From contig CP023991.1 of NCBI GenBank assembly GCA_003516025.1, positions 721,374 through 753,373 on the forward strand: a stretch of DNA of 32,000 bases. Direction: 5' to 3'. A model generated the notes under the pieces. That model saw only the letters and a list, made by a program, of their open reading frames with translations, was not told where the DNA came from and did not search any database. A program made the translations under genes and the position numbers. The DNA is from Candidatus Saccharimonadota bacterium (GTDB lineage Bacteria; Patescibacteriota; Saccharimonadia; Saccharimonadales; UBA4665). Positions 3 through 24,531 of the stretch are shown piece by piece (positions within the stretch are counted from its first letter, which is position 1; the number at the start of each line of letters is the position of its first letter).

Positions 3-215
3 ATTGCTTTCGCCTTCCTCGACGGAGATTTTTACCAGTCAATCATTGATTCGCTGCGCCTGGTTTATCCACGCATGCGGCCAGGCGGTATCATTGCCAT
101 TGACGATTACGGCCGGGAAAAGCTGCCGGGTGTGGAACGGGCAGTGCGCGATTACTTTCAAGGCAAGCAGTACAATGTGCGCGTCGCGCATAATATCGGA
201 GTGATCCAACTATGA
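3..215 (+). CDS. SAM-dependent methyltransferase, TylF/MycF-like (C-terminal fragment; 5' end lies outside the window)
   Basis: Frame +3 is open from the window edge to TGA at 213-215. It is absent from the ORF track because it has no in-window start. The translation IAFAFLDGDFYQSIIDSLRLVYPRMRPGGIIAIDDYGREKLPGVERAVRDYF fits the D-G-D-x-Y-x-S ... G-G-x-I-x-x-D-D-Y C-terminal layout of TylF-type class I methyltransferases. The stop overlaps the rlmH start (ATGA). Confidence 0.55.
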   Translation: MAFAFLDGDFYQSIIDSLRLVYPRMRPGGIIAIDDYGREKLPGVERAVRDYFQGKQYNVRVAHNIGVIQL

Positions 216-640
216 AAATACATATTATCACCATCGGTGAACCGAAGCCTGCTTATGCCAAAGCAGGCTGGCAGGAGTACATAGGGCGGCTTAAACATTA
301 CCATGCGGTGCGCGCGACCCATATTGCCGATAAACATAACGACGCCGGGCATCTGCTTGAGGCCGCGGGTAAAGCATACAAGGTAGCGCTGGCCATTACA
401 GGCAAACAGCTCAGCAGCCCGGAGTTAGCCGCTTTTATTGAAAGCCGCAACCAGGACGGCCGGGAAGTCGCCTTCATTATAGGCGGTCCTGACGGTTTAC
501 AACCTGAAGTACTGGCGGCCAGCGATATGCAGCTTAGTTTTTCCAAACTGACCTTCCCGCACGATCTTGCCATGGTCATACTGGCCGAAACTCTGTATAG
601 AGCCAGTACCATCGCCGCTGGCCAACCGTATCACCGATAG
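212..640 (+). CDS. rlmH: 23S rRNA (pseudouridine1915-N3)-methyltransferase RlmH (SPOUT family)
   Basis: The product is 142 aa. Its N-terminus MKIHIITIGEPK, the IIGGPDG box and the C-terminal LSFSKLTFPHDLAMVILAETLYRA ... PYHR are typical of RlmH in both length and motifs. Confidence 0.85.
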   Translation: MKIHIITIGEPKPAYAKAGWQEYIGRLKHYHAVRATHIADKHNDAGHLLEAAGKAYKVALAITGKQLSSPELAAFIESRNQDGREVAFIIGGPDGLQPEVLAASDMQLSFSKLTFPHDLAMVILAETLYRASTIAAGQPYHR

Positions 641-657
641 TGACAGTCCCTTCATAT

Positions 658-679
658 AAAAAAACAGCATAATATGCTG
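658..679 (-). terminator. Rho-independent terminator (minus strand)
   Basis: CAGCAT-AAT-ATGCTG forms a perfect 6-bp stem at 665-679. On the minus strand it is followed by T7 (complement of A658-A664). The plus side has no T-run, so it is assigned to the minus-strand transcript coming from 873-1889 and the hairpin element. Confidence 0.5.
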
Positions 680-704
680 AGTATACTTTGATATAAGTGT
701 GTAG

Positions 705-822
705 TGGAGGTGGTATTTTGGACTCCCGAAGGGAATCAACAAATATACCACCTCCAGGCGGGAGCACCAGCGAACCTTTACGGTCCATATGCCGGTGCTC
801 CCGCCTGCCTCCTTTGGGGAGG
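705..822. other. Unclassified structured element: three consecutive perfect hairpins (candidate ncRNA or structured 3' UTR)
   Basis: Hairpin 1 pairs 705-716 with 745-756 (12 bp, TGGAGGTGGTAT/ATACCACCTCCA) and has an inner TCCC-GAA-GGGA mini-stem. Hairpin 2 pairs 756-768 with 794-806 (13 bp, AGGCGGGAGCACC/GGTGCTCCCGCCT). Hairpin 3 pairs 808-812 with 818-822 (CCTCC/GGAGG). The element lies in a convergent intergenic region and has no credible ORF. Confidence 0.4.
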
Positions 823-872
823 ACTTTATCTGAGTAAGGTTCAGACTACCGGTAATGCATCATCTGGTGCGG

Positions 873-1889
873 TCAGGCGGCCTTGTCCTGCGACTGGGTG
901 CGGGCGATCATCCTCTCGTTGATGTCGTGGGTGTTGGCGACGACGGGCATGTCGAGACCTCTGGAGCTGGCGAGCGCCATGATGGCGATCACCTCTTTGG
1001 GCAGGCACGCACCGGCGTAGGGACCCAGGTTGCGGGTGCCGTACTTCGGGTTGCGCAGCCCTTCGCAGGACACCTCGGAGATCTTGTAGATCAGTGCGAT
1101 CTCCGGGTCGGAGACGCGGTGGAGGCGGCAGAGCTGCTCGAACTCGCGGTTGAAGGCGATGCGGATGCCCTCGAAGAGGTCGGGTGCCGCGAAGACGGCC
1201 TGTATCTGCTGCTCGGTGAAGCCGTTGTCCTCCAGGTGCATGCGCAACTGGTTGCAGAACGAGATCTTCACCGCGTTGTAGACGTTGTGGTGGTACTTCT
1301 GCAGCTCGCCGGCGACGATGGAGGTCCACCGCATGGGGACGCCGAACGGCTCGTAGAGCTTCTCCATGACCTCCACGGAACGAACGTCCTGAGGGTGGTG
1401 GCCGATGGTCACGACCCGGGGGTTGAGGCTGTCAGCCAGCGGGTTCTTGTCGTCCGTCGGGTTCTCCGCACGGAGGTACTCGGGGTTGTAGACGACACCG
1501 AAGTCGACGCCGGCCTTCTTGCCCGAGATGTCCTCCATCTGTTGAGTCAGCTCCCTGGTCATGCCGGGGATCTGGGTGCAACGGAAGACGACGACCGGGT
1601 AGTGGGAGTCGTTGATCCCGCTGAGCTTGTCGGCGATGTCGTCGGCGGCGGCCCGGAGGTAGCTGGTGTCCTGGCCCTGGGGCGTGGACGGGGTCGGCAC
1701 CGAGACGAAGATCAGGTCCACGTGGTGGATGTTGACCTGGTCGGGACGGACGGCGTAGAGGCCGCGGCCCATGAGCTGCCAGATCCGCTCCTGCGAGACG
1801 TCGACGAACGTGACGTCGTGTCCGCGCTGGAGGAAAGCCTGGCCCGTGGCGGAACCGACGACACCGGAACCGTAGATGGCGATGTGCAT
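873..1889 (-). CDS. UDP-glucose/GDP-mannose dehydrogenase family protein (short form, 338 aa), high-GC xenolog with catalytic Cys intact
   Basis: N-terminal Rossmann motif MHIAIYGSGVVGSATG. Central-domain signature GELQKYHHNVYNAVKISFCNQLR. Active-site box YAGACLPKE, with the Cys codon at 1005-1007. RBS AAAGAGG lies 8 nt upstream of the ATG. Third codon positions are almost all G/C, unlike the flanks. Confidence 0.75.
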   Translation of the reverse strand: MHIAIYGSGVVGSATGQAFLQRGHDVTFVDVSQERIWQLMGRGLYAVRPDQVNIHHVDLIFVSVPTPSTPQGQDTSYLRAAADDIADKLSGINDSHYPVVVFRCTQIPGMTRELTQQMEDISGKKAGVDFGVVYNPEYLRAENPTDDKNPLADSLNPRVVTIGHHPQDVRSVEVMEKLYEPFGVPMRWTSIVAGELQKYHHNVYNAVKISFCNQLRMHLEDNGFTEQQIQAVFAAPDLFEGIRIAFNREFEQLCRLHRVSDPEIALIYKISEVSCEGLRNPKYGTRNLGPYAGACLPKEVIAIMALASSRGLDMPVVANTHDINERMIARTQSQDKAA

Positions 1890-2006
1890 GAGAGCACCTC
1901 TTTCGAGAGATCACTGCGGGTGGATTGGTGGCCACACTAGATGATGTAAAGAGCAAAATCACTCGGATTACATCAGAGCTGATGTGCGGGTGTGACTTGC
2001 ATTAGC

Positions 2007-2035
2007 AAACTAACATACTTTTGCTTTTGTGTCAA
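2007..2035 (-). promoter_or_regulatory. Sigma70-type promoter for 873-1889 (TTGACA-N17-TGtTAGTTT)
   Basis: On the minus strand, TTGACA (2030-2035), a 17-nt spacer, then extended -10 TGTTAGTTT (2007-2015). This gives a ~110-nt leader containing an ACATCA-GCTC-TGATGT hairpin. Confidence 0.4.
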
Positions 2036-2088
2036 TTATAGTCTATGTATCTTAAGCACTATAACAGTATAAATTTAATTACTCATTA

Positions 2089-2117
2089 TTGACTCTCTTA
2101 CAAAAAAATGTTAGTTT
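2089..2117 (+). promoter_or_regulatory. Sigma70-type promoter for the polysaccharide operon (TTGACT-N17-TGtTAGTTT)
   Basis: TTGACT at 2089-2094, a 17-nt spacer, then TGTTAGTTT at 2109-2117. The 10-mer ATGTTAGTTT is identical to the one in the divergent promoter at 2007-2016. Confidence 0.4.
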
Positions 2118-2162
2118 AATGTAAGTTAGCGCTCATTGTTACGCAGGCGCTCGCATATAATT

Positions 2163-3362
2163 ATGAAATTAATTTTTAACTGGATACAGCACCGGCTCAG
2201 GCAGCATCGCCTAGCTCTTATATGGAGCTGCTTTTTTGCAATTATACTTAGTATTATAATTGCCAGCGTAATATATAACGCAGCCCCCCGAAGTAGCTCG
2301 GAGTCGAATCAGCGGTATCGGCTTACCAATCCATTCGGCAGCCAGCCATCATATGGCAGTACCTATTATGTTAGCCCTAATGGCAACGATAAAAATGATG
2401 GCCTTGCAGAGAAAACTGCCTTTAAAAGTATCAACAAAGCGGTTAGCTACGCAGAGGCTGGAAATACCATTCAGCTCGCTGACGGTTTATATCGTCAAAC
2501 TATCTCCAGCGTTAAATCCGGCACACCAGGTAAGCCAATTATCCTTCGCGGCTCCCAAGCCGCCGTTGTAAATGGCTCGCCTGATGATAGCCGCATTGTT
2601 GAAGTACGCCATAATTACATTACTCTGGACGGCTTTACAATTGACGGCGCAAGCGGTGATGCGCGGCAACCGGAAGATTTTCAAGATAAATTGCTCTACG
2701 TAATTGGCAATGCGCCGCGGCAAGGCGTTGAGGGGCTGCACGTTACAAATATGCTCATCCAAAATGGTGGCGGTGAATGCGTACGGCTGCGTTATTACGC
2801 GGCTAACAATGAAATTGATCATTCGACTATCCGTAATTGCGGTATCTACGATTTTCGATTTGATGCAGGCAGTAAAAATGGAGAGGGCATATATATCGGC
2901 ACAGCCCCCGAGCAGACGGGTGACGGTAAAAATCCGACTTCAGATGTCGATACGTCCCATGACAATCATATCCATAACAATATTATCGAAACACATGGCA
3001 ATGAATGCGTTGATATAAAAGAAGGCTCCCACGACAATATCGTTGAGCATAACACTTGCCGATACCAGTCAGATCCTGAATCCGGCGGCTATGATGCCCG
3101 TGGCAGCAACAATACGATTCGCTATAACGTAAGTGAGCATAACAAAGGAGCGGGTGTCCGGCTTGGTGGCGACAAGAAAAGCGATGGCATCAATAATAAA
3201 GTGTACGGTAATACGCTCACCGATAATAAAAATGGTGTAATGAAAATCACCCGGTTACCACAGAGTACTGTGTGCGGTAACAAAAGCTCCGCCAACGGAA
3301 ACGGTGATAATACCGTCCGTAATATTGACGTTACAAAGAAATGTAATAATTCTATTGATTAA
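2163..3362 (+). CDS. Membrane-anchored right-handed parallel beta-helix protein (pectate-lyase fold, DUF1565-like)
   Basis: N-terminal TM segment LALIWSCFFAIILSIIIASVIY. This is followed by YYVSPNGNDKNDGLAEKTAFKSINKAVSYAEAGNTIQLADGLY, typical of beta-helix glycan-active proteins, and repeated N-x-I-x-x-N turns. The start is ambiguous: ATG 2163 is preferred over the track's TTG 2136. Confidence 0.6.
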   Translation: MKLIFNWIQHRLRQHRLALIWSCFFAIILSIIIASVIYNAAPRSSSESNQRYRLTNPFGSQPSYGSTYYVSPNGNDKNDGLAEKTAFKSINKAVSYAEAGNTIQLADGLYRQTISSVKSGTPGKPIILRGSQAAVVNGSPDDSRIVEVRHNYITLDGFTIDGASGDARQPEDFQDKLLYVIGNAPRQGVEGLHVTNMLIQNGGGECVRLRYYAANNEIDHSTIRNCGIYDFRFDAGSKNGEGIYIGTAPEQTGDGKNPTSDVDTSHDNHIHNNIIETHGNECVDIKEGSHDNIVEHNTCRYQSDPESGGYDARGSNNTIRYNVSEHNKGAGVRLGGDKKSDGINNKVYGNTLTDNKNGVMKITRLPQSTVCGNKSSANGNGDNTVRNIDVTKKCNNSID

Positions 3363-3389
3363 TTGTCAATAATAGTGTATTGTTATACT
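3363..3389 (+). promoter_or_regulatory. Possible internal extended -10 promoter
   Basis: TTGTCA (3363-3368), a 15-nt spacer, then TGtTATACT (3381-3389). An AGGAG RBS follows at 3411-3415, 9 nt before ATG 3425. Confidence 0.35.
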
Positions 3390-3424
3390 AACTATTCGAC
3401 AAGTATACATAGGAGCAGACCCGT

Positions 3425-4249
3425 ATGAAAATAGCAGTAATTGGTAGTGGTATTGCAGGCCAGGCAGTTGGTACGGCTTTAAGCAAACATGACAACAGTA
3501 TTATATTCGTAGACGTTATTAAAGCAGCGCTTCAGCCCTTACAGACTAAAGGCTATACGACCGAACTTGCCGATACCTATACCAAAATCAACACTGATAT
3601 TACCATGTTCTGCGTACCTGCGTCCCAGTTAGAAAAAGCTGTACGCTCCTTTGCCGCCCGTCTGAAAAACCATAATAAATACCACACTATCGTCATATGT
3701 TCGAGCATTGTACCAAACACTAGCCGGAAAAAGATACTACCACTTATCGAGTCGCTGTCTGGCAAAAAGGCTGCTATCGACTTCGGCATTGTGGTCCAAC
3801 CATTGTATGCGCGCTCAGAGACAATTAATCCAGATTCTGCCCGTCCATGGTTCATCCTTATTGGTGAACTAGATAAAAAATCCGGCGACACCATTGCACG
3901 GTTGTATACAAAATTCGATGCTCCGTTGGAACGCATGAGCCTGGAAGAGGCCGAGTTCCAAAAGTACGTCCACAATATGTTTAACGCAACTAAAATCAGC
4001 TTTTTTAATGAATTGCGGGTTATTGCCGTAAAAGAAGGCTGGAACGATACTGCTATTTTTGAAGCGGTAGCTGAAAGCTCGGAAGCAATTTGGAACCCTC
4101 TCTATGGCATACATGACAAAGGCGGTTTCAGTGGTACTGGCATTGAAGCTGACGCCGAAACCCTCGTTGATTGGGCGCAAGCGAACCAGTACGGCGTCGG
4201 TATTATTAAAGCCGTGCTAGCTGCGAACAAGGGCACTCACCGTGATTGA
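3425..4249 (+). CDS. UDP-glucose/GDP-mannose dehydrogenase family paralog (274 aa) lacking the catalytic cysteine
   Basis: MKIAVIGSGIAGQAVG Rossmann motif and EFQKYVHNMFNATKISFFNELR central signature. It is colinear with the 873-1889 product (GKKAAIDFGIVVQP vs GKKAGVDFGVVYNP). The active-site box reads FSGTGIEAD where the xenolog has YAGACLPKE, so Cys is replaced by Gly at codon 4139-4141 and Lys by Ala. The 3' end overlaps the GT2 start by 8 nt. Confidence 0.7.
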   Translation: MKIAVIGSGIAGQAVGTALSKHDNSIIFVDVIKAALQPLQTKGYTTELADTYTKINTDITMFCVPASQLEKAVRSFAARLKNHNKYHTIVICSSIVPNTSRKKILPLIESLSGKKAAIDFGIVVQPLYARSETINPDSARPWFILIGELDKKSGDTIARLYTKFDAPLERMSLEEAEFQKYVHNMFNATKISFFNELRVIAVKEGWNDTAIFEAVAESSEAIWNPLYGIHDKGGFSGTGIEADAETLVDWAQANQYGVGIIKAVLAANKGTHRD

Positions 4250-5846
4250 CGCCGAATTACTTAAAACCATCCTGCTGTATATTCCGCTTTCGCTGATTGG
4301 CGCTTGGCGCTGGACATTCTGGCTGGTTCGCCGTATAACCGCCGAGTTTTACAACCCACAAGTTCAACCGTGGCCTGCCGACGAGGTAAAGCCAACCACC
4401 AGCATTGTTACGCCAGTCTATAACGAGGACCCGATTGTTTTTGAAGAAGCAATGCAGTCCTGGATTGCAAATGGAGTCGATGAAATTGTTGCTGTTATCG
4501 ATAAGTCGAATACGCGGCATATTGTTGATTTCCAGAGGCGCTACGTCGATAATCCAACCGGTGAAACAGTTTGCCGTGTTGTAGTTACGCCGAAACCCGG
4601 CAAACGGGCCGCTCTCTGTGACGGTATTGAGGCAGCCACTGGTGATCTCATAGTTTTAGTTGATTCGGATACTATTTGGAGCAGCGATGTACTAGAGAAA
4701 ACTTTGCCATATTTCCAAAATGAACGAATTGGCGGCGCCACCGTTGCGCAGCGAATCCAAAATCCATATAACGTTGCTAATGTGATGTTCGACATCCTCC
4801 TATACTCGCGATATAAAGAAGAAGTACCGTTTCTACTTGCTACTGGCCGTGCCTTTAACACATTGTCTGGCCGTACGGCATTTTACCGACGCGAAGCAAT
4901 ATTTAATGACACGTACGACAACATGCATGCGCTTCGCCACGAATTTTTCCTAGGGACGCGTGGCATTTCAGGGGATGACAAGCGTTTGACACATTTAATT
5001 GTTGAACAGGGTTGGCACACCGCCTTTGTAAAAGGGCCGGTAGTACTGACACCAGGCCTGAATTCGGTGAAAAAGTTCTTAAAGCAGCGACTTCGCTGGA
5101 CACGCAATTCATGGCGCGCCGACCTGAGAGCCGTTGGCCGCGGTTGGGTATTCTCCCATCCTGCATTAGCGATATTTATGATCGACCGCTTCATACAACC
5201 AGTGTTTATGTTAATTGGTCCGGTAGTCATGACGTTCGCGCTCATCAACCATGAATGGTTATTCGCGGGCATTTTACTGGCATGGTGGTTCATTAGCCGT
5301 ATTATTCGAGTCTTCGGTTACTTCAAACAATACCCGAAGCGGCTAATATATCTGCCGGCTTATATTTTGTACGGTTATGCTAATGCCGTTATCAAAATAT
5401 ATGCCTTGGCTACCTTAATTGAGCACAGCTGGGCGACACGCTGGAATAAGGCTCGCGCAAAGCGCAAGAGCATTTTCCGCAAAGCATACACTGTTGTCAG
5501 CGGTTACGCAGCGATTGTCGTATTTATGGTACTAATCGTACAAATCGTATTATCGCTACGTACCCAAGCCGGCGCTGACATTACCGTACCAGCACCAGTC
5601 GATGCCACGGCGTTCAATCAGCAAGTTCAAAACGTAACTCAGCTACAAAAACAACCGCCAGCACCGCAAGGCTACATTGATCCTACTGTCGTTAAAGAAT
5701 ATACGGTTCAGTCTGGCGACACTTTATCCGGCCTGTCGATCCAATTCAATATGACCGTCCAAGACATAAAGCGGTTCAATACTTTGCGCACTAATGCCTT
5801 AATACCAGGACAAGTCATTTTTTACTATATGGCAACACAAGGATAA
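4242..5846 (+). CDS. Processive family-2 glycosyltransferase (hyaluronan/chitin synthase/NodC/Alg8-like) with C-terminal LysM domain
   Basis: GTG start with an AAGGG RBS. TM segments are present at the N-terminus and after the catalytic domain. Motifs: VDSDT (4662-4673), FYRRE, GDDKRLT and Q-R-L-R-W (5085-5099, the QxxRW processivity motif). C-terminal LysM YTVQSGDTLSGLSIQFNMTVQDIKRFNTLRTNALIPGQVIF lies at about 5700-5828. Confidence 0.8.
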   Translation: MIDAELLKTILLYIPLSLIGAWRWTFWLVRRITAEFYNPQVQPWPADEVKPTTSIVTPVYNEDPIVFEEAMQSWIANGVDEIVAVIDKSNTRHIVDFQRRYVDNPTGETVCRVVVTPKPGKRAALCDGIEAATGDLIVLVDSDTIWSSDVLEKTLPYFQNERIGGATVAQRIQNPYNVANVMFDILLYSRYKEEVPFLLATGRAFNTLSGRTAFYRREAIFNDTYDNMHALRHEFFLGTRGISGDDKRLTHLIVEQGWHTAFVKGPVVLTPGLNSVKKFLKQRLRWTRNSWRADLRAVGRGWVFSHPALAIFMIDRFIQPVFMLIGPVVMTFALINHEWLFAGILLAWWFISRIIRVFGYFKQYPKRLIYLPAYILYGYANAVIKIYALATLIEHSWATRWNKARAKRKSIFRKAYTVVSGYAAIVVFMVLIVQIVLSLRTQAGADITVPAPVDATAFNQQVQNVTQLQKQPPAPQGYIDPTVVKEYTVQSGDTLSGLSIQFNMTVQDIKRFNTLRTNALIPGQVIFYYMATQG

Positions 5847-5850
5847 CACT

Positions 5851-7515
5851 ATGAAGAATAAAACCCCTCAACAGTCTGTCGCAAAATCTAATACAAAGAA
5901 GTTCCGGCGCCTGGGCAACCTTCGCCCGGTAGTACTCATTTTGCTCATTCCACTGGCGGTCGGAGCGTTAACAATCGGAGCTGTTGCGTCCGGTCTGTAC
6001 TACAATAGCGTCGCGCGGTTAGGCAGCGACCGGCTCATAACCCAGAACTGGCAGAGCGCCAACGATTCACTCGCCGCCCAACAACCAAAGTACGAGCGCA
6101 AATTCGCATATTACCAGGTTAAAGCCGGCCAAACCCTGGAAGATCTGTCTGAGTATTTTAGTGTCACCCCCAGCACTCTAGCTTCCATGAATCCGGGCAA
6201 TATTACAACTGGAACGACTGTCAAAATTCCTGCCCTCGAAGCGCCATATACGCCAAAAAACGGCCCAAACGGCCTGCTTGGTACTGCAGCTGTCACTGAT
6301 GAAGCTGGCGTAATCCATATTACGAGTAAGTACGGTTACGGGACACATATCGATACCAATATACCTGAAATTGCCAGTTTCCTGGCGCCATACAATGCGA
6401 TTGAACAGATCAGTCCAAAAGTATTCCGCTTTAACCGTCCAGTTTCAATTGACGGCGACATTCGGATAGACATAACAACCGCTACTGTCAGCCGCATTGA
6501 GCTTCGCAGCGCGCCGAACGACATCACCTGCCTGTGTTTTGACCAGTCAGCCGCATTGATTGACGGCGTTACGATTACTTCTTACGATCCCACAACAAAA
6601 CAAGCCGATGACAACTACTCAGACGGACGCAGTTTTGTGCGCATGAAAAACGGCCGCATGGATACCATAAATACTACTTTCACGCGTCTCGGCAATGGCA
6701 TCGACAGTGCTGTTCCAGGGTCACCATTTTATGGCACACAACAAGACGGCGGCGTCTACGGCGTATCATGGCGTATTTCAAGCATGACGCTGGGGAAGCA
6801 AATTACTACCGGCTGGGTAGAGGGCTCAACTTTTGAACACAACTACTTTGGTGCCTACACCTTTGGTGCCTCAGGCATGCTCTGGAGGGGTAATACATTC
6901 GACGCAAATCACGTATACGGCCTTGATCCTCACGATGACAGTAATAACGCACTCATTGAAAACAATATTTTCAAAAACAATGAAAAGCACGGCTTTATCG
7001 TGTCGAAGCGCTGCAACTACAATATTATCCGTAACAACCTCTCGCTGGACAATAAAGTTAACGGCTTTATGTTACACCAGGACTCAGCCTACAATTTAAT
7101 TGAGAACAACGTCTCAGCTGGCAATACCGATAACTACGTTATTTACGAGTCCAACTACAACACCATTAGTAACAATAAAAGTTATAACGCCAGTTCAAGC
7201 CATATCCGCGTTAATCAATCTTCACACAACACTTTCATAACCGGCAACCAGACATACGGCAATGGACGGGGCATATTCCTTTACGACGGTGTTACAAATA
7301 CGCTAATCAGTCAAAACACTATCCAGGGAAGCGGCAAAAAATTACAGACAAATAACGCTCAGAACACTGTCTTCCTCAATAATAAGGTTAGCGACATTCA
7401 CTATGACATTAATGAAGGCGACCGGATGATTTTCGGCCCGAATACCGCCAAAACTGTCGACATGACCATACCGGCAGACCAGGCTTTACTAACGGCATTC
7501 GAGAAGAAGCAATAA
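5851..7515 (+). CDS. Membrane-anchored LysM + right-handed beta-helix protein, mannuronan C5-epimerase (AlgG/AlgE)-like
   Basis: N-terminal TM segment, then LysM YYQVKAGQTLEDLSEYFSVTPSTLASMNPGNITTGTTVKIP (6109-6231). The block YGLDPHDDSNNALIENN...KHGFIVSKRCN carries the DPHD motif (6925-6936) that is conserved in AlgG. Many NN-x-x-x-N beta-helix turns. RBS AAGGA lies 7 nt upstream. Confidence 0.6.
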   Translation: MKNKTPQQSVAKSNTKKFRRLGNLRPVVLILLIPLAVGALTIGAVASGLYYNSVARLGSDRLITQNWQSANDSLAAQQPKYERKFAYYQVKAGQTLEDLSEYFSVTPSTLASMNPGNITTGTTVKIPALEAPYTPKNGPNGLLGTAAVTDEAGVIHITSKYGYGTHIDTNIPEIASFLAPYNAIEQISPKVFRFNRPVSIDGDIRIDITTATVSRIELRSAPNDITCLCFDQSAALIDGVTITSYDPTTKQADDNYSDGRSFVRMKNGRMDTINTTFTRLGNGIDSAVPGSPFYGTQQDGGVYGVSWRISSMTLGKQITTGWVEGSTFEHNYFGAYTFGASGMLWRGNTFDANHVYGLDPHDDSNNALIENNIFKNNEKHGFIVSKRCNYNIIRNNLSLDNKVNGFMLHQDSAYNLIENNVSAGNTDNYVIYESNYNTISNNKSYNASSSHIRVNQSSHNTFITGNQTYGNGRGIFLYDGVTNTLISQNTIQGSGKKLQTNNAQNTVFLNNKVSDIHYDINEGDRMIFGPNTAKTVDMTIPADQALLTAFEKKQ

Positions 7516-7528
7516 GGGAACCCCCGTT

Positions 7529-8899
7529 ATGGAAGCTACGGCATTATTCTGGAAACGACCGTACACCGATCATACAAAGCGTATGGTGTTGGGTTTATTG
7601 CTGGTAATATTGGGGAGCCTGTTGTTTGTTACCGGTCACAGTGACGCAACGACGGCCGCTTCATGCCAAAAGAGTGTTACCCGCTATGCCGGTACTACCA
7701 ATACCATTTATATCGCAGGTGCCGATGTAGTGTGTACTCCAGCAGACATTCAGGTTATGTATCCGTCAAGCATGAAACACCCAAAAGCACGAACTTTCAT
7801 GCTCAAGTCAAACATCGTACTCCAACAAGGCGCGACACTGATCATTAAAGGCGGAACAGCTTCCGATGCTACCACCGATGAATTCCGTATGATGTCCAAC
7901 AATAATAATATGACCAACAATTTCGTAAACATAACTGCCGATTACGGCACCGTCCATATCACTAATACTAAGGTTAAGTCATGGGATGAAGCTACCAAAG
8001 CCGCCGATACAGAATACGGTGACATATATAAGCGGGCGTTTATACGCGTCCGTTCACGGGCAATCGGAAACGTACAAAACATATCACGTATGAATATCGT
8101 TAATAGCGATATTGGATATTTAGGATATTATGGTGCCGAAAGCTACGGCCTTGCATGGAAAGTCATGGACAGTGCGTTTGATAAAGTGGATGTACTGGGA
8201 AACATTACCAATAGTCGTATCCATAATAACTATTTTGGTGTGTATACCTTTGGCGCCTTCGGTATGGTTATCAATCAAAATGAATTCGATCATAACATTA
8301 AATATGGTCTTGATCCGCACGATGACTCGGATTCATTGAAGATCACCAATAACTCTTCACACCACAACGGTGACCATGGCATTATATGCTCGCAGCGCTG
8401 TGACAACTTACTAATTAGCGGCAATAACTCCTATAGCAATGCCGGGCACGGCATCATGCTGCATCGTTCAGTTGACAACTCAATAATCGAAAACAACACG
8501 GTTGCCTATAACGGCGACACCGGCATCGCGCTGTTTGAAAGTAATCACAATATCATCCGAGGCAATCTGGTAAAAAGTAACAAAAACGGTATCCGCCTGT
8601 CAGTTGGGTCATCATACAATTTATTTGAAAATAATATTATAGAAAAGACTAAAGAAATTGCAATCTACACCTATAAGGGAAGCGACACACCCGTACGTAG
8701 TGATGGTATAAATGCCGGCAATGCCTGGAAGACAAATACCGTTACCGGCACCGGTTTACTGGTACTGCAACTTACTGCTACACATGGTGATCAGTTTAAA
8801 AGTAATAGTTTTGCTGGAAATCCATTAGCCGGTTATGACACCAACCGAGTTACTAACACATCGTTTGTTAGTAACTCAACCGACTTAAACAATCTCTAG
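7529..8899 (+). CDS. Membrane-anchored/secreted right-handed beta-helix protein, second AlgG/AlgE-like C5-epimerase homolog
   Basis: N-terminal hydrophobic anchor MVLGLLLVILGSLLFV. YGLDPHDDSDSLKITNN...DHGIICSQRCDN with DPHD at 8312-8323. It is a paralog of the 5851-7515 product (NNYFGVYTFGAFGM vs HNYFGAYTFGASGM). Confidence 0.6.
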   Translation: MEATALFWKRPYTDHTKRMVLGLLLVILGSLLFVTGHSDATTAASCQKSVTRYAGTTNTIYIAGADVVCTPADIQVMYPSSMKHPKARTFMLKSNIVLQQGATLIIKGGTASDATTDEFRMMSNNNNMTNNFVNITADYGTVHITNTKVKSWDEATKAADTEYGDIYKRAFIRVRSRAIGNVQNISRMNIVNSDIGYLGYYGAESYGLAWKVMDSAFDKVDVLGNITNSRIHNNYFGVYTFGAFGMVINQNEFDHNIKYGLDPHDDSDSLKITNNSSHHNGDHGIICSQRCDNLLISGNNSYSNAGHGIMLHRSVDNSIIENNTVAYNGDTGIALFESNHNIIRGNLVKSNKNGIRLSVGSSYNLFENNIIEKTKEIAIYTYKGSDTPVRSDGINAGNAWKTNTVTGTGLLVLQLTATHGDQFKSNSFAGNPLAGYDTNRVTNTSFVSNSTDLNNL

Positions 8900-8916
8900 C
8901 CGACCGAGCTGTGATA

Positions 8917-8956
8917 ACGTAAAATAGGTCTCATAGAAGACTTATTTTACGTTTTT
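8917..8956 (+). terminator. Rho-independent terminator of the synthase-epimerase operon
   Basis: 15-bp stem ACGTAAAATAGGTCT (8917-8931) / AGACTTATTTTACGT (8938-8952) with one G-U pair that only works on the plus strand. The loop is CATAGA, followed by a T-run to 8956. Confidence 0.75.
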
Positions 8957-8985
8957 GCCAATTAATTTCTCTTATGCTTTATACT
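8955..8985 (+). promoter_or_regulatory. Promoter of the PL7 lyase gene, leaderless layout
   Basis: TTGCCA (8955-8960), a 19-nt spacer (long), then TATACT (8980-8985), then exactly 7 nt to ATG 8993. There is no SD. Confidence 0.4.
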
Positions 8986-8992
8986 ACTGCGT

Positions 8993-9931
8993 ATGAAGTT
9001 CAGCCGTATCCAGATATGTAGCCTGCTAAGCTTTATCGTAATCATATTCCTGATTAGTGCCGTAGCAGTCTACAACAACTATGGCACCATACCATTATCA
9101 CCGGTTACCGTTACCTCACAGAAAATAAATAATCCACAGATTGCAACTCAACCGGCAACATCCCAGACTACTACGAATAAGCAAACTGCACCGCCAAGCG
9201 CTTCCCAGTCTAGTTCCGCCGCCGCCCCATCAGTAGAAATAAAACCTCAGCCTGTACGGCCTGTAATCAATGCGCCATCCCAACTTATTGACCTGTCTAA
9301 CTGGTATGTAACACTTCCAACCGACAATGATGGCAATGGAAGGGCTGATGAAATTCACCAGCCCTCATTGGCAGGCTTCAGTGTGGCACATTATTTTATG
9401 CTTAACGATGCCCGCAATGGCATCATTTTCCAAGCTCATGCCGGAGGCGCTACAACATCAGGCTCACATTATCCACGGAGTGAACTCCGAGAAATGGCTG
9501 ACAACGGCACAGTCAAAGCGGCATGGTCCAATACCAGTGGCAGTCATAGTATGACCGTAACGGAAGCAATTACCCATTTACCATCTGCTAAGCCGGAGGT
9601 TGTAGCGGCCCAGATACATGATGCTAACGATGACGTCATTATGATACGGCTGGAAGGACGGCGCTTATTCGTAGAAAGCGATGATGGGAAAAATAGCGGT
9701 GACCTCGATACAGCCTACACACTTGGCACTACCTTTACAGTTCGTATTCTTGCCGAAAATGGCCACATATACGTTTCATACAATGGCGTAGCTAAAGTTG
9801 ATCTTGCTCGGAGCGGCTCAGGATTCTATTTTAAAGCCGGCTGTTACACGCAATCCAACACTACAAAAGGCGACAGCGGCGATGCGTACGGCCAGGTTAT
9901 TATGTATGGTTTAAGCGTTACACACTCGTAG
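8993..9931 (+). CDS. Polysaccharide lyase family 7 (alginate/polyuronate lyase-like), membrane-anchored with S/T/P/Q-rich linker
   Basis: All three PL7 signature blocks are present. R-S-E-L-R-E lies at 9476-9493, Q-I-H at 9611-9619 and Y-F-K-A-G-C-Y-T-Q at 9827-9853. N-terminal anchor LLSFIVIIFLISAVAV. Confidence 0.75.
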   Translation: MKFSRIQICSLLSFIVIIFLISAVAVYNNYGTIPLSPVTVTSQKINNPQIATQPATSQTTTNKQTAPPSASQSSSAAAPSVEIKPQPVRPVINAPSQLIDLSNWYVTLPTDNDGNGRADEIHQPSLAGFSVAHYFMLNDARNGIIFQAHAGGATTSGSHYPRSELREMADNGTVKAAWSNTSGSHSMTVTEAITHLPSAKPEVVAAQIHDANDDVIMIRLEGRRLFVESDDGKNSGDLDTAYTLGTTFTVRILAENGHIYVSYNGVAKVDLARSGSGFYFKAGCYTQSNTTKGDSGDAYGQVIMYGLSVTHS

Positions 9932-10394
9932 CGGCGATTTGGCTGCTTTTAGCAATGATGGCAGTAGTACTAGTTACCTTCGGCGCGTCCGATACGACAA
10001 CCCTTATAGTAGGATTGATAGTAGAAAGATAATTTTTTATCTGTGGCGAGACAGCTTCATAGTTCAGCAGCAGTATGTCAGGCTTAACGGCTGTCAGTAT
10101 TTTTGGATCGTAGTGCGGTACACTATCGATAAACACATAGTCTACGTATCGTATGGCAGCAATTAACTTAGCGCGATCGTTTTGAGCATTAATAGGACGG
10201 GCAGGGCCTTTTTTCTGCCTGACACGCTCGTCACTCGTTACGTGCACAATCAGTGTTTCGCCGTATGCTTTAGCTTCACGCAAATGATCAATGTGGCCAC
10301 TGTGTAGAATGTCGAATACTCCGCCGATTAAAACAACGTTATGCAAACTTGGACGGATTGAGGCAATCTCAGCCAAAGAATAAAGCTTTTCCAT
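9918..10394 (-). CDS. Cytidylyl/adenylyltransferase family protein (TagD / RfaE domain II-like)
   Basis: VLIGGVFDILHSGHIDHLREAK matches the G-x-F-D-x-x-H-x-G-H nucleotidyltransferase motif. The product is 158 aa. It overlaps the PL7 gene end convergently by 14 nt. Confidence 0.65.
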   Translation of the reverse strand: MEKLYSLAEIASIRPSLHNVVLIGGVFDILHSGHIDHLREAKAYGETLIVHVTSDERVRQKKGPARPINAQNDRAKLIAAIRYVDYVFIDSVPHYDPKILTAVKPDILLLNYEAVSPQIKNYLSTINPTIRVVVSDAPKVTSTTAIIAKSSQIAATSV

Positions 10395-10455
10395 ATAATT
10401 ATTTTTACATATTATATTATATATGTCAATACATAATTGATACTATGCATTACTA

Positions 10456-10484
10456 TTGATCATTTATACAATTCATGATATAAT
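10456..10484 (+). promoter_or_regulatory. Strong extended -10 promoter, leaderless layout
   Basis: TTGATC (10456-10461), a 17-nt spacer, TGaTATAAT (10476-10484), then 7 nt to ATG 10492. Confidence 0.55.
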
Positions 10485-10491
10485 TACCCCC

Positions 10492-11232
10492 ATGAATAAA
10501 GCGGGAGTGCTTTTCACTAAAACTAACGTAGACACATCCCAGCACGCCGGCAGTCGGCCTGAACATACCGCTGCCTGGTCGGATTGGGCTATTAAGCGCG
10601 CTCCGGAACTACGGGCAATGCAACAAGCTGGGTTACTCGGAAGTGAAAACCGCGCCTGGCGTAACGTAGCGGAGCACTGTCTAGTAGTCAATGCGACAGC
10701 AATGTTTATTGCCACACATATCAAAGTCGCAGGCACCGCCCTTGATAGCCACCTCATAGACCAGGGAAGCATGCTCCATGACGCAACTAAACGACTCGAA
10801 AAAGAACAGGGAGTCGGCTACAGTAACGAGCATGGTTCGCCGCTTAGAAAAAACTTTTTATCGCTACTTGGTTATCCAGAAGAAGTAATTGCAGTCACCG
10901 AGTATACGGGACGCGTACCTGAAATGTTCATACAAGACACCACTGAGCGCCACGCAGCCATTCAGGCTCAGCCGCTTGAGCAGCTCGTTGTCGCCTATGC
11001 CGATGCCCGGGTTCGCAATGTAAATATCGTACCCCTCGAGCAAGCACGCGACATGAACAAGCAAAAAGTTCCTGCCGATGCGACGGTATACGATCAGTGG
11101 TACGACTTTTACCACGATGTAGAAAACCGTATCTTTGCAACAATTGGCAGAAATGCCATTTGCGCTGATTCACTTAACAATGATGCAGTGATTACTATGG
11201 TGCAACAAACGTATCAAAATAACGGTGCATAA
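10492..11232 (+). CDS. HD-domain phosphohydrolase
   Basis: NVAEHCLVV ... GSMLHDATKR gives the H...HD metal-binding pattern. The start is moved from the track's TTG 10456 (which is the -35 box) to ATG 10492 (MNKAGVLF) because of the promoter geometry. Confidence 0.6.
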   Translation: MNKAGVLFTKTNVDTSQHAGSRPEHTAAWSDWAIKRAPELRAMQQAGLLGSENRAWRNVAEHCLVVNATAMFIATHIKVAGTALDSHLIDQGSMLHDATKRLEKEQGVGYSNEHGSPLRKNFLSLLGYPEEVIAVTEYTGRVPEMFIQDTTERHAAIQAQPLEQLVVAYADARVRNVNIVPLEQARDMNKQKVPADATVYDQWYDFYHDVENRIFATIGRNAICADSLNNDAVITMVQQTYQNNGA

Positions 11233-11288
11233 CGGGGCTAGCCCTGACTTTAAATTAAATTTAAGGTACAACAGGTACACTTAGTGGC

Positions 11289-11960
11289 ATGAGAATACTT
11301 GTAGTCGAAGATGAACACCGCATTGCCCACGCTATTAAGGAAGGCCTGGAGCAGGAAACTTACGCCGTTGACGTCTGTTACGACGGGGAAGATGGTTACA
11401 ACACAGCTACGGCCGACGATTATGATTTAATCATTTTAGACGTCATGATGCCGCGAATGAACGGCTACGAGGTCTGTCGTAAGCTGCGCGAGAGCGGTAA
11501 CCACACGCCCGTCCTAATGCTGACGGCCAAGGACCAGAACCGCGACATCGTACAGGGACTGGATAACGGTGCCGACGATTACTTAGCCAAGCCATTTTCG
11601 TTTGAAGTATTACTGGCGCGTATTCGGGCGCTGCTACGCCGGCCCCATGAAACCGCCAGCGAAACACTGCAGGTTGGCGACCTGACCATGAACCCGGCCA
11701 GTCATCAGGTAGCCCGTGGCGGCATGGTGATTAATTTATCCAGCAAAGAATACGCAATTTTAGAATATTTGTTACGCAATCCGGGCAGAGTGCTCAGCAA
11801 AAACAACATTATGACGCACGTTTGGGATTTTGACGCCGACATCTTACCAAACAATGTCGAAGTGTTCATAACCTACTTGCGCGCCAAAGTCGACAAGCCC
11901 TTCGATGGGCCGGGTTTAATTCAGACCGTAAGGGGATTTGGGTATAAGATTGAAGCGTAG
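11289..11960 (+). CDS. OmpR/PhoB-family response regulator
   Basis: The REC domain has MRILVVEDE, DLIILDVMMP and LTAKD. The C-terminal winged helix ends in TVRGFGYKI. TACACT lies 7 nt before the ATG. Confidence 0.9.
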   Translation: MRILVVEDEHRIAHAIKEGLEQETYAVDVCYDGEDGYNTATADDYDLIILDVMMPRMNGYEVCRKLRESGNHTPVLMLTAKDQNRDIVQGLDNGADDYLAKPFSFEVLLARIRALLRRPHETASETLQVGDLTMNPASHQVARGGMVINLSSKEYAILEYLLRNPGRVLSKNNIMTHVWDFDADILPNNVEVFITYLRAKVDKPFDGPGLIQTVRGFGYKIEA

Positions 11961-11961
11961 C

Positions 11962-12999: not shown

Positions 13000-13161
13000 C
13001 AAGTCTATTGACATAAGCGCTATTACACCCGTTGTCAAGGGCATCTATCTTCATGCCACAATGTTACGCCCCTATACTCCAGGTTTTACGGCTTTAAGTA
13101 ACTTTTAATCCGTCCTCAGTATCCTCAAAGCATAACCAAATGTAATACAGGATATACAGCA

Positions 13162-24227: not shown

Positions 24228-24440
24228 CTACTTGCGCCGACGGTTCCGCACACCCCGGAAGGCGAGGATGAAGAAGCCGATGAACGGCACCAGCAGCACG
24301 ATGGTGAACACCAGCACCAGGATCGACTCCCAGTAGTGGCCATCGTCCCAGTAGTCGTCGAACGCCGTGAGGACCGCGAAGATCCGGCCGACGAAGTCGA
24401 CGATCGGACCAACGATCTCCAGGCTTGTGCCAGTACCCAT
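24228..24440 (-). CDS. Small membrane protein (70 aa, 2 hydrophobic segments, RNRRRK tail), high-GC foreign gene, holin-like
   Basis: MGTGTSLEIVGPIVDFVGRIFAVLTAFDDYWDDGHYWESILVLVFTIVLLVPFIGFFILAFRGVRNRRRK. The start is ATG 24440, with a GGGGGAGAG RBS 6 nt upstream. Extreme GC3. Confidence 0.55.
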   Translation of the reverse strand: MGTGTSLEIVGPIVDFVGRIFAVLTAFDDYWDDGHYWESILVLVFTIVLLVPFIGFFILAFRGVRNRRRK

Positions 24441-24479
24441 ATGTATCTCTCCCCCAGTTGGGTGGATCAGGACCAGAGT

Positions 24480-24508
24480 ATAATACAATATTATTAATTG
24501 TTTTGCAA
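24480..24508 (-). promoter_or_regulatory. Host-type promoter for 24228-24440
   Basis: On the minus strand, TTGCAA (24503-24508), a 17-nt spacer, then TATTAT (24480-24485). Confidence 0.5.
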
Positions 24509-24511
24509 TGA

Positions 24512-24519
24512 TGTGGCTT
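24512..24519. repeat. Target-site duplication, left copy (TGTGGCTT)
   Basis: An 8-bp direct repeat immediately outside IRL. It is identical to 26553-26560. Confidence 0.8.
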
Positions 24520-24531
24520 GGCAATTATACC

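Follow-up and report, generated by a model that had tools for sequence, protein, structure and literature searches.

A conserved position in a surface-polysaccharide gene cluster of a Saccharimonadales genome has probably been refilled by a foreign gene. We analysed a window of 32,000 nt in which one minus-strand gene, encoding a 338-aa dehydrogenase-like protein (Q338), stands out by its G/C-rich third codon positions. Our preferred explanation is a recent import of a single gene whose high-GC donor was most probably a member of the Actinomycetota outside the databases. The imported piece would measure about 1.1–1.2 kb; besides the ORF, it would include the gene's own Shine-Dalgarno sequence and a little 3' flanking DNA. 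In a surface-polysaccharide cluster of CPR type it would occupy the A slot, as a xenologous replacement and not as a new function.

Composition sets the gene apart from the rest of the window. In 400-nt windows, GC is 0.62–0.64 across positions 801–2000 against 0.375–0.53 on both flanks, and in 80-nt windows it ranges from 0.55 to 0.72 within the high-GC segment and from 0.23 to 0.49 past position 1881. A two-boundary likelihood fit places the segment at 748–1933; on the right it is reliable to about 1945, and on the left it has two optima, near 750 and near 866, which leaves that edge ambiguous. Besides the ORF, the segment delimited in Table 1 holds some 55 nt of 5' leader and 15–125 nt of 3' flank. 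The ORF has a GC content of 0.646 (GC1 0.62, GC2 0.39, GC3 0.926), and all 27 other window ORFs tested lie below it in GC3 (0.38–0.64). The original prediction had described a GC jump at about 841–1945 with G/C-rich third positions and proposed windowed GC and GC3 as a check; both profiles confirm it, with steps on both sides of the segment. Its picture of a single intact, foreign-looking ORF with its own ribosome-binding site, lying between AT-rich promoter DNA and a T-tract terminator, also stands, and the ribosome-binding site, TTGACA promoter-like site, hairpins and T7 terminator were all located. Two other patches of the window, at 12.0–14.4 kb and 28.8–29.6 kb, were considered as instances of the same phenomenon and rejected: their GC3 is at most 0.64, so they are not GC3-driven and represent something different.

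Table 1. Features of the slot gene, its surroundings and the adjoining operon, in window coordinates.
Feature	Positions	Strand	Basis or remark
Accessory island, 10.6 kb	641..11249	none	high-GC gene plus lower-GC (0.458) operon
High-GC segment, presumed imported DNA	748..1946	none	likelihood fit and 80-nt GC profile
CDS, 338-aa short-form nucleotide-sugar-dehydrogenase-like protein (A copy, Q338)	873..1889	-	ORF list, Pfam, composition, AF2
Shadow ORF, 361 aa	855..1940	+	no Pfam match; listed by public gene calls instead of the real gene
Inverted-repeat left arm, CATCATCTGGTGCGGTCA, 18 nt, imperfect	858..875	none	overlaps stop codon
Inverted-repeat right arm, TGGCCACACTAGATGATG	1929..1946	none	right edge of segment, in 5' leader
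Shine-Dalgarno, GAAAGAGGTG	1895..1904	-	5 nt before ATG (1889-1887), read from sequence
Promoter-like TTGACA-N17-TAGTTT, TGT directly before (extended -10)	2007..2035	-	faces high-GC gene; 0 mismatches
Twin promoter-like TTGACT-N17-TAGTTT	2089..2117	+	faces DUF1565 operon
Structured 3' region of slot gene	640..872	-	fold -101.6 kcal/mol, z = -8.4 against shuffles
GC-rich hairpin, 17-nt arms	755-807		without T tract
Further hairpins of 3' region	705-756 and 808-822		
Bidirectional terminator, CAGCATATTATGCTG then T7	658-679 (hairpin 665-679, T7 658-664)		shared with convergent rlmH
Polysaccharide operon next to slot	2163..9931	+	Pfam/NCBIfam matches, gene order
DUF1565 beta-helix protein	2163-3362	+	
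B copy, resident paralogue, 274 aa	3425..4249	+	GC3 0.455; 33% identical to Q338
GT2+LysM glycosyltransferase	4242-5846	+	
Two NosD/AlgG-like beta-helix proteins	5851-7515 and 7529-8899	+	
Alginate_lyase2 protein	8993-9931	+	

Public gene calls overlook the gene and list the plus-strand ORF opposite it. The first codon position of that 361-aa ORF is the third position of the real gene, which identifies it as a shadow ORF and agrees with the earlier view that alternative-frame ORFs in the islet are GC artefacts. By exact look-up the 338-aa product is not on record, because the antisense ORF was called in its place; the 361-aa product is on record on five contigs. Given this antisense annotation in the public gene calls that we inspected, protein-based screens for horizontal gene transfer (HGT) and functional catalogues miss the gene. 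GC3-rich imports in reduced genomes of intermediate GC may be systematically overlooked in the same way.

Domain, alignment and model evidence agree that Q338 is an intact, short-form UDP-glucose/GDP-mannose-dehydrogenase-like protein, predicted to be catalytic. An N-terminal NAD-binding domain (PF03721, E 5.4e-24, 85 bits, cut-off 27) with G7, G9 and G12 of the GxGxxG motif conserved precedes a central dimerisation domain (PF00984, E 4.2e-11, 43 bits, cut-off 25.4), whose match is interrupted by a 35-aa insertion. The C-terminal UDP/GDP-binding domain PF03720 gives no Pfam match at E <= 0.01, only about 40 residues follow the catalytic Cys, and the NCBIfam model TIGR03026 scores 154.9 bits, under its trusted cut-off of 189.8. 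Every one of the about 370 listed relatives has 285–340 aa and the N-terminal and central domains only. C295 aligns with the catalytic Cys motif of 1mfz and 2y0e; T105, E137, K198 and N202 are kept, the catalytic Asp is replaced by E299, and 46 of the 52 family-conserved columns are retained. The AF2 model (pLDDT 94.3, pTM 0.92) found GDP-mannose dehydrogenase (GMD) 1mfz and UDP-glucose dehydrogenases (UGDHs) as its best Foldseek matches, with query-normalised TM-scores of 0.64–0.74; GMD is the nearest structure, at 24% identity. Two insertions, one of about 35 aa (residues ~225–260, two predicted helices) and one 6-aa loop, occur in no homologue. We rejected internal tandem duplication as the source of the longer one: the local alignment scored 18 where shuffles averaged 16.2 (p ~0.29), and the DNA shows no underlying repeat.

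The gene lies at the edge of an accessory island. By its RlmH, whose nearest named relatives are from Candidatus Saccharimonadales (81%) and Saccharibacteria (72%), the backbone is Saccharimonadales (Patescibacteria), as the suggestion of an epibiont had it. The flanks are not the plain host backbone that had been supposed: the gene borders a lower-GC island, with rlmH on one side and a response-regulator gene on the other, that is absent from the close relatives sampled. Comparison with sister genomes, proposed earlier as a check, found the gene missing from L094 (RlmH 88%), L093 (84%) and L091/L092 (85%). These relatives without the slot gene also lack the entire 10.6 kb, and L094, the closest, has 76 bp in its place.

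The slot itself is conserved in three other contigs that carry the cluster. The gene order of the operon recurs in L084–L086 and L095–L097. In the window and in L095, L096 and L097, which are Patescibacteria-type contigs with the same layout, an A gene stands divergent from the DUF1565/B/GT2-LysM/NosD/AlgL2 operon, so the idea of a graft at an arbitrary site does not hold. Because slot and operon are both conserved, xenologous replacement is favoured over capture of a new function. The slot genes of L095 (P0006) and L096 (P0002) occupy the same position as Q338 and are 45% identical to it, compared with 48–50% for the B proteins and 48% for AlgL2; as this value is just modestly under those of the neighbours, Q338 may share ancestry with the native slot gene. 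Their GC3 is 0.51, against 0.44–0.50 for their neighbours; equally high GC in relatives, named beforehand as contrary evidence, is thus not what they show. Of the divergent intergenic region, the Shine-Dalgarno sequence alone is conserved between the window and L095/L096. An 84-aa ORF follows the slot gene in both of these contigs, and no trace of a remnant appears in the 3' region of the window. A metagenome scan for sister loci with the DUF1565 protein returned four matches, weak and short.

A second slot gene also looks foreign, and the partner gene has decayed wherever the slot is filled. In L097 the slot gene has a GC3 of 0.72 against 0.36–0.45 for its neighbours. It is Chloroflexota-like, with 62–67% identity to Chloroflexota homologues and just 32% to Q338, and so represents an independent event. 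In the window, the B copy no longer has the catalytic motif (it reads GTGIEAD in place of the G-S/A-CLPKD of the family) and has also lost R103, T105, E137 and L139; compared with its relatives it is some 26 aa shorter, and it retains 39 of the 52 conserved columns. The catalytic Cys is missing from B in 4/4 slot-gene genomes (the window and L095–L097), and B is intact in L084/L085 and L086, where no A gene lies nearby. L098 has a degenerate B and no A gene within the 3.9 kb available upstream. Recurrent import into the slot combined with loss of the B Cys points to replacement of a catalytic subunit, not to random gain. Q338 would then provide the dehydrogenase activity that B has lost, with thioester chemistry at Cys295 yielding a uronic-acid sugar.

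The slot gene appears to be wired into the regulation of its neighbours. The two promoter-like sequences between gene and operon belong to a 33-nt inverted duplicate (arms 2007–2039 and 2085–2117, 24/33); none of 300 Markov simulations reached that value (maximum 22), and by this measure the twin promoter is beyond chance. Since the slot promoter nearly duplicates the operon promoter in inverted orientation, Q338 would be transcribed from it in co-regulation with the operon, and the transcript would end at the T-tract hairpin common to rlmH. The 5' leader and 3' hairpins contain no Rfam family at E <= 1. We rejected the GC-rich hairpin as a REP-like repeat, as it occurs in a single copy within the window.

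Codon usage points to an actinobacterial source, as the GC3 pattern had suggested. The log-likelihood per codon is -0.67 to -0.72 nats under Actinomycetota loci versus -1.12 under the window backbone. The best-fitting usage is that of flanking genes of Actinomadura, Spirillospora, Aeromicrobium and Streptomyces (-0.67 to -0.70), and the codon choice is specifically C-ending, in actinobacterial style. The family is indeed common to Saccharibacteria and Actinomycetota, and published work documents that Actinomycetota and Saccharimonadia have exchanged genes (bioRxiv 10.64898/2026.09.16.751625; PMC12455944). Neither 5.8 billion clusters nor 1.84 billion representatives yielded a donor sequence; the best identity was 40–46% (43–46% among the representatives), and similarity to plasmid DNA came down to one 67-nt motif match.

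Phylogeny did not bear out the expected nesting inside an actinobacterial clade. By neighbour joining (NJ), Q338 is a long branch in a mixed clade of Actinomycetota and Saccharibacteria, falling within subfamily A in at least 90% of bootstraps. Its sister in 200 NJ bootstraps was a compositionally atypical Mycobacterium copy in 38%, a Saccharibacteria sequence in 36% and a Saccharibacteria clade in 15%, so that the sisters are mixed and none exceeds 38%. Q338 is near-equidistant (42–45%) from Saccharibacteria and Actinomycetota members. The high-GC members found within subfamily A are Actinomycetota only; in amino-acid composition (GC2 0.39, GARP 0.27) Q338 is nearer the Saccharibacteria copies than the actinobacterial ones of this subfamily. 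The subfamily members found match their own flanks, apart from Q338 and two Actinobacteria whose deviation runs the other way, namely the low-GC copies of Mycobacterium methanotrophicum (0.54, flank 0.64) and a Streptomyces (0.54, flank 0.70). The missing donor, the Saccharibacteria-type sisters, the Saccharibacteria-like composition, the identity to the L095 and L096 slot genes close to that of the neighbouring proteins and the L098 B without an A all weigh against the preferred explanation.

Some of these features would suit a longer itinerary, which we see as a refinement of the import explanation and not as an exclusive alternative. A Saccharibacteria-type slot gene may have moved to a high-GC host, alone or with its cluster, stayed until its third codon positions were GC-saturated, and been re-imported into the same slot. 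Its GC1 of 0.62, GC2, GARP and FYMINK (0.24) match the Saccharibacteria copies and also the B copies of Aeromicrobium, members of a Saccharimonadales-dominated clade with a GC3 of 0.86–0.91, and given GC1 and GC2 its GC3 lies about 2.7 residual SDs over the family regression. Entire clusters are common to Aeromicrobium and Saccharimonadales (GT2 57–58% identical), the bootstrap sisters are mostly of Saccharibacteria type, and the low-GC Mycobacterium methanotrophicum and Streptomyces copies suggest transfer in the reverse direction. However, amino-acid composition in the family looks functionally constrained, and it is a weak clock because the Aeromicrobium copies keep theirs at about 50% divergence. 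The equidistance of Q338 from both groups also tells against such a return, as does the lack of any known intermediate sequence. We regard the double journey as possible but doubtful.

An imperfect inverted repeat brackets the high-GC segment. Its arms are complementary at 15/18 positions, with 2 matches observed against 0.07 expected; shuffling the boundary windows 500 times never gave 15/18, and one of 179 control pairs from the genome reached it. With the arms taken as 18-nt imperfect terminal inverted repeats, positions 858–1946 could form a 1.09-kb, non-autonomous mobile cassette mobilised in trans. The placement of the repeat at both high-GC edges, its rarity in controls and an IS1595-family transposase gene in the window (24568–25464) are compatible with this. 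Yet direct reading found neither a target-site duplication beside the arms nor an integron attC at the edges, the window holds no extra copies of the repeat (CATCATCTRGTGYGGYCA), the L097 slot gene has no comparable bracketing repeat, and no integrase or transposase lies within the island (641–11249). The repeat could instead reflect 5'–3' pairing of the mRNA (duplex energy of the arms on the mRNA strand, -23.8 kcal/mol) or chance, and we judge a cassette unlikely.

It is less probable still that the foreign gene is a passenger, dead on arrival, unexpressed or non-functional, in a decaying cluster of which the degenerate B is a symptom. Foreign codons may translate poorly, and B is degenerate. 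The 338-codon ORF is nonetheless intact in GC-rich DNA and keeps 46 of 52 conserved positions, the catalytic ones among them; it has a strong Shine-Dalgarno sequence, a duplicated operon-type promoter and a terminator. The remaining operon genes are intact and 55–72% identical to those of relatives, and the arrangement of A with a degenerate B is kept in three other genomes.

Vertical descent of a native gene, its GC3 raised locally by selection on codons or mRNA structure or by biased repair, is highly improbable. The orthologous position would fit, as would the identity to the L095/L096 slot genes at near the neighbours' values and the slightly higher GC of those slot genes relative to their neighbours. 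We know of no bacterial process, however, that would take GC3 from about 0.5 to 0.93 in a single gene when genes 250 bp off are at 0.44. High GC also continues beyond the coding sequence, in the 5' leader and the 3' flank, the codon choice is C-ending and actinobacterial in style, and the parallel L097 case is of foreign, Chloroflexota-like origin.

The islet is also present in separate assemblies. Three separately assembled contigs, one of 353 kb from ENA (MEGAHIT-style), one of 16.5 kb from Logan and one of 33 kb from JGI, match the window at 100% identity over 4.9–14.2 kb, both junctions included, and the index holds two more contigs of >1 Mb with the same products. The least probable account of all is therefore an assembly chimera or contamination, a high-GC fragment mis-joined into a Saccharimonadales contig, since the same DNA recurs in three assemblies and the fragment coincides with a single gene, correctly placed and oriented for this operon and complete with promoter and terminator, despite the metagenome origin, the sharp compositional boundaries and a possible overlap of the read sets.

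Recent import into the slot, the explanation we retain, places a very fresh acquisition, its GC3 still at donor level, in a surface-polysaccharide cluster and not on a mobile element. Saccharimonadales live as obligate epibionts; few of their hosts have been identified, and foreign genes count among the rare genomic clues to their partners. More speculatively, and with considerable doubt, the slot may be a re-fillable socket into which catalytic short-form dehydrogenases of high-GC neighbours are repeatedly swapped, with B kept as a non-catalytic partner. The sources would be bacteria that the epibionts lived on or beside, Actinomycetota-like for the window and Chloroflexota-like for L097. Surface polysaccharide chemistry would then be retuned to the current host, and the composition and phylogeny of each imported gene would record a host association. 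The short-form dehydrogenase family without the nucleotide-binding domain, like the cluster, is widespread in Patescibacteria and uncharacterised.

Q338 resembles the UDP-glucose/GDP-mannose 6-dehydrogenases (PF03721, PF00984 and PF03720; TIGR03026) in its Rossmann and helical central domains and in the conserved Thr105, Glu137, Lys198, Asn202 and Cys295 (Cys motif AGACLPKE versus GGSCLPKD), with Pseudomonas aeruginosa AlgD (PDB 1mfz) as the nearest solved structure. It differs in size, having 338 aa and no C-terminal nucleotide-sugar-binding domain where UGDH and GMD have 420–490 aa. The same two-domain architecture is found in subfamily A (~285–300 aa; Saccharibacteria and Actinomycetota), whose NCBI labels are 'UDP-glucose/GDP-mannose dehydrogenase family protein' and '2-dehydropantoate 2-reductase N-terminal domain-containing protein'. 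These proteins share just 42–45% identity with Q338, which is 40–50 aa longer and is encoded with a GC3 of 0.93, the GC of its genome being about 0.5.

The cluster as a whole invites comparison with alginate biosynthesis. The Pseudomonas set includes algD (GMD), alg8 (GT2), algG (a beta-helix C5-epimerase) and algL (lyase), and the window cluster has a GMD-like dehydrogenase, a GT2 synthase, AlgG-like beta-helix proteins and an alginate-lyase-family protein. All of its matches score far under the equivalog cut-offs (AlgG 88–111 bits against 700, NodC 90 against 550). Unlike the Pseudomonas cluster, it has no counterparts of Alg44, AlgK, AlgE or AlgX, its GT2 carries a LysM domain and its dehydrogenase is truncated.

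Xenologous gene displacement is a general concept, and the event proposed here belongs to a known kind, HGT with xenologous replacement, with the recurrence in the slot as a twist. Known HGT into Patescibacteria and Saccharimonadia, host-to-epibiont or other, likewise involves foreign composition, a family shared with Actinomycetota, the known host phylum, and a gene in an accessory island missing from relatives (bioRxiv 10.64898/2026.09.16.751625; PMC12455944). Published screens worked either with called proteins or with donors matched at >90–99% nucleotide identity (bioRxiv 10.64898/2026.09.16.751625; PMC12455944). Unlike those transfers, the present case has no near-identical donor and its real protein is missing from the gene calls, and the event would be a slot-specific replacement that recurs elsewhere from a different donor phylum.

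The high-GC islet of the window is likely a recent horizontal import, bringing a short-form sugar dehydrogenase of predicted function from an unsampled high-GC donor, probably an actinomycetote, into a conserved slot of a surface-polysaccharide island. The step in composition is genuine and substantial, with GC at 0.62–0.64 across 801–2000 in 400-nt windows, against 0.51–0.53 in the left flank and 0.375 in the right. A two-boundary likelihood fit tolerates a right edge up to ~1945 and gives two nearly equal optima for the left, ~750 and ~866. The sole credible gene within encodes a 338-aa protein, Q338, with GC 0.646, GC1 0.62, GC2 0.39 and GC3 0.926; GC3 in 27 other measured window ORFs is 0.38–0.64. 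The ribosome-binding site, promoter, hairpins and T7 hairpin read by eye from this stretch were all found in place. An assembly chimera is unlikely, given three separately assembled contigs (L001–L003), identical to the window at 100% over 4.9–14.2 kb and covering both junctions. Elsewhere, the GC-rich patches at 12000–14400 and 28800–29600 are, unlike the islet, not driven by GC3.

Features of the window, in window coordinates
Feature	Position	Strand	Remark
RlmH	212–640		
Spurious called ORF	576–788	-	70 aa
3' region of hairpins and terminator	640–872	-	
Hairpin, then T7	658–679		
GC-rich hairpin	755–807		two others nearby in the 3' region
Accessory island	641–11249		10.6 kb
High-GC segment	748–1933		likelihood fit
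Shadow ORF	855–1940	+	361 aa
Inverted repeat	858–875, 1929–1946		15/18 matches
Dehydrogenase A (Q338)	873–1889	-	338 aa
Shine-Dalgarno GAAAGAGGTG	5 nt 5' of the Q338 ATG	-	
Promoter-like TTGACA-N17-TAGTTT	2007–2035	-	
Dehydrogenase B	3425–4249	+	resident paralogue
Response-regulator gene	11289		
FtsX-like ORF	13162–14544		GC3 0.64
Lower-GC patch	24400–26710		GC 0.42–0.47
IS1595-family transposase gene	24568–25464	+	
P63C-domain protein gene	25454–26467	-	
tRNA-Glu(CTC)	26633–26709	-	adjoins the lower-GC patch
ORF	28356–29669		GC1 0.74, GC3 0.55

Gene callers picked the wrong strand of the islet, which hides the real protein from protein catalogues. Exact look-up of the 338-aa product returned no record in the gene collection; the antisense 361-aa ORF is on record, and an index lists five contigs for it (ENA, 353 kb; Logan, 16.5 kb; JGI, 33 kb; two above 1 Mb, the longest 1,005,782 bp). 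This plus-strand ORF has no Pfam match, and because its first codon position coincides with the third of the true gene, it is a typical GC shadow. Public calls inspected carry it in the window, in L001 (7431–8516) and in L002 and L003 (3001–4086); the spurious 70-aa ORF was also called, on top of the hairpin region.

Q338 looks like a functional gene product rather than a decaying fragment, given its domains, catalytic motif, conserved columns and confident structural model. Pfam assigns it the NAD-binding (PF03721, E 5e-24) and central (PF00984, E 4e-11) domains of the UDP-glucose/GDP-mannose dehydrogenase family. Its catalytic cysteine motif aligns (AGACLPKE versus GGSCLPKD), and it keeps 46 of the 52 columns conserved at ≥93% across 223 relatives, including T105, E137, K198, N202 and C295. 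The AlphaFold2 model scores pLDDT 94.3 and pTM 0.92. By sequence and by fold, the nearest solved structure is the GDP-mannose dehydrogenase AlgD (1mfz), with UDP-glucose dehydrogenases ranking next. A unique insertion of ~35 residues (~225–260, two predicted helices), which divides nearly all top database alignments into two stretches, is accompanied by a 6-residue loop insertion.

The backbone belongs to an epibiont lineage, as had been guessed, and the gene sits in an accessory island rather than being grafted into plain backbone DNA. The nearest named relatives of RlmH are Candidatus Saccharimonadales (81%) and Candidatus Saccharibacteria (72%), and those of the B paralogue likewise fall in Saccharibacteria and Saccharimonadales; the ~1.0-Mb length of the longest contig suits the reduced genomes of this group. 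L094, the nearest of the relatives sampled (RlmH 88% identical in amino acids, ~76% in nucleotides), has 76 bp between rlmH and its counterpart of the window's response-regulator gene; since two further relatives also lack everything between these genes, 641–11249 is an accessory island. It comprises the high-GC gene and a lower-GC operon (0.458 versus 0.53 in the backbone) encoding, in order, a DUF1565 beta-helix protein, dehydrogenase B, a GT2 glycosyltransferase with LysM, two NosD/AlgG-like beta-helix proteins and an Alginate_lyase2 protein. ATG 2163 is the probable start of the DUF1565 gene (399 aa), matching public calls; TTG 2136 is disfavoured because the -10 of the operon-facing promoter-like site ends at 2117, leaving almost no leader. 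In this Saccharimonadales lineage the DNA 3' of rlmH is a hotspot of variation, with a different gene set in each relative examined (L094, 1693–1768; L093; L091/L092). The lower-GC patch beside the tRNA gene resembles an insertion of mobile-element or phage origin.

Composition points to an Actinomycetota donor, and the tree leaves the immediate relative of Q338 variable. Two database searches, one word-indexed over 5.8 billion clusters and one exhaustive HMMER search over 1.84 billion representatives, found no close homologue; the best identity was 40–46%. A scan with one genome per species recovered at least 80 homologue loci, the best listed being Mycobacterium methanotrophicum, several Actinomycetota MAGs, Nonomuraea, Actinomadura and Saccharibacteria MAGs, all at 35–43%. 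In a neighbour-joining (NJ) tree Q338 lies on a long branch within a mixed Actinomycetota and Saccharibacteria clade, subfamily A; the B copy falls in a separate clade of Saccharimonadales and Aeromicrobium, subfamily B. The predicted nesting inside an actinobacterial clade was not recovered, because the clade is mixed and the sister varies across 200 bootstraps: the M. methanotrophicum copy, GC-poor relative to its own genome, in 38%, a Saccharibacteria MAG in 36% and a five-member Saccharibacteria clade in 15%. Codons are strongly C-ending (GTC 23 versus GTG 7; GCC 18 versus GCG 5) and are best predicted by flanking genes of Actinomadura, Spirillospora, Aeromicrobium and Streptomyces loci, with a poorer fit from Chloroflexota loci or the backbone. 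Among the matches listed, Actinomycetota are the only high-GC group within subfamily A. Amino-acid composition (GC2 0.39, GARP 0.27) is closer to Saccharibacteria copies and would fit a round trip of the gene through a high-GC host, a less likely route. Two subfamily-A copies are much GC-poorer than their flanks, L004 6001–6864 (Candidatus Mycobacterium methanotrophicum; 0.54 versus 0.64) and L069 6001–6837 (Streptomyces sp. NPDC126510; 0.54 versus 0.70), and are candidates for the opposite transfer, from a lower-GC organism to an actinobacterium.

The slot occupied by Q338 is conserved. Three other low-GC, Patescibacteria-type contigs (L095, L096, L097) carry a short dehydrogenase divergent from DUF1565/B/GT2-LysM/NosD/AlgL2, as in the window; between window and L095, operon proteins are 48–72% identical and slot proteins 45%. 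The L095 and L096 genes are subfamily-A members of 291 aa and nearly native (GC3 0.51 versus 0.44–0.50 in neighbours). The L097 gene (5554–6534, minus strand; 326 aa; GC3 0.72 versus 0.36–0.45) is 62–67% identical to Chloroflexota homologues and 32% to Q338, and is evidently an independent import into the same slot from a different phylum. Its imported stretch likewise ends a few tens of bases beyond the ORF on either side. A general reading in which the slot is repeatedly refilled by imported dehydrogenases is of low probability. B/GT2-LysM-type cassettes are widespread in Patescibacteria and occur at 46–58% identity to the window's in Aeromicrobium and other Actinomycetota, where high-GC contigs of Aeromicrobium or Actinomycetota MAGs (L028, L037, L038, L039, L043, L073; ~6001–12600) hold the whole B/GT2-LysM/NosD/AlgL2 set. 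The B genes of these contigs fall among those of Saccharimonadales and retain a low-GC-like amino-acid composition (GC2 0.39–0.40) with GC3 0.86–0.93, suggesting exchange of whole clusters between the phyla.

The resident B copy appears degenerate where the slot is filled. In the window it keeps 39 of the 52 conserved columns, is ~26 residues shorter, has lost R103, T105, E137 and L139, and reads GTGIEAD where the family has G-S/A-CLPKD. L095, L096 and L097 likewise carry a B copy that has lost the cysteine motif; B copies are intact at loci without a slot gene (L084/L085, L086). The comparison covers few loci, L095 and L096 being mutually related, and L098 is a counter-example, in which B is degenerate and the 3.9 kb available upstream contains no A gene. 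About 10 of ~100 subfamily-B relatives lack the CLPK motif (P0123, P0159, P0171, P0173, P0179, P0180, P0184, P0196, P0202); among those looked up, P0173, P0196 and P0202 are preceded by a divergently read slot gene, like the window's B copy, and P0179, from L098, has none in the contig sequence at hand. We infer that the slot gene supplies the catalysis, with B a non-catalytic partner or a decaying copy.

The divergent region suggests that import and operon may be co-regulated. This AT-rich DNA holds two promoter-like sites, inverted near-copies of ATTGAC-N15-ATGTTAGTTT that match at 24/33 positions (reached in 0/300 simulations), one pointing to the imported gene and the other to the operon. 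The 3' region forms three strong hairpins and a T-tract terminator common to rlmH (z = -8.4), with no Rfam family matched. An imperfect 18-nt inverted repeat brackets the coding sequence where the high-GC DNA gives way to its flanks and is rarer than chance (15/18 reached in 0/500 shuffles and 1/179 genomic controls). It could be a cassette vestige, 5'–3' mRNA pairing (-23.8 kcal/mol) or luck; it has no adjacent target-site duplication, no second copy in the window and no counterpart at the L097 import.

The original observation is borne out and its interpretation partly supported: a foreign-looking gene in an epibiont backbone stands, actinobacterial nesting found no support, and the DNA around the gene is not plain backbone. 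Horizontal import is a known type of event: gene transfer has been documented into Patescibacteria and, in activated sludge specifically, between Saccharimonadia and Actinomycetota (bioRxiv 10.64898/2026.09.16.751625; PMC12455944). TM7x, on the other hand, showed little DNA of host origin (PMC7427843). New here are slot-specific, apparently recurrent replacement, its pairing with a resident paralogue predicted to be catalytically dead, the lack of any near donor even though third positions are unameliorated, and the wrong-strand annotation of a real gene. Q338 is predicted to work like a UGDH/GMD-type dehydrogenase but departs from canonical members in having no C-terminal nucleotide-sugar-binding domain by Pfam and in scoring 155 against the TIGR03026 cut-off of 190. 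Only by analogy does its cluster resemble a minimal version of an alginate-type set.
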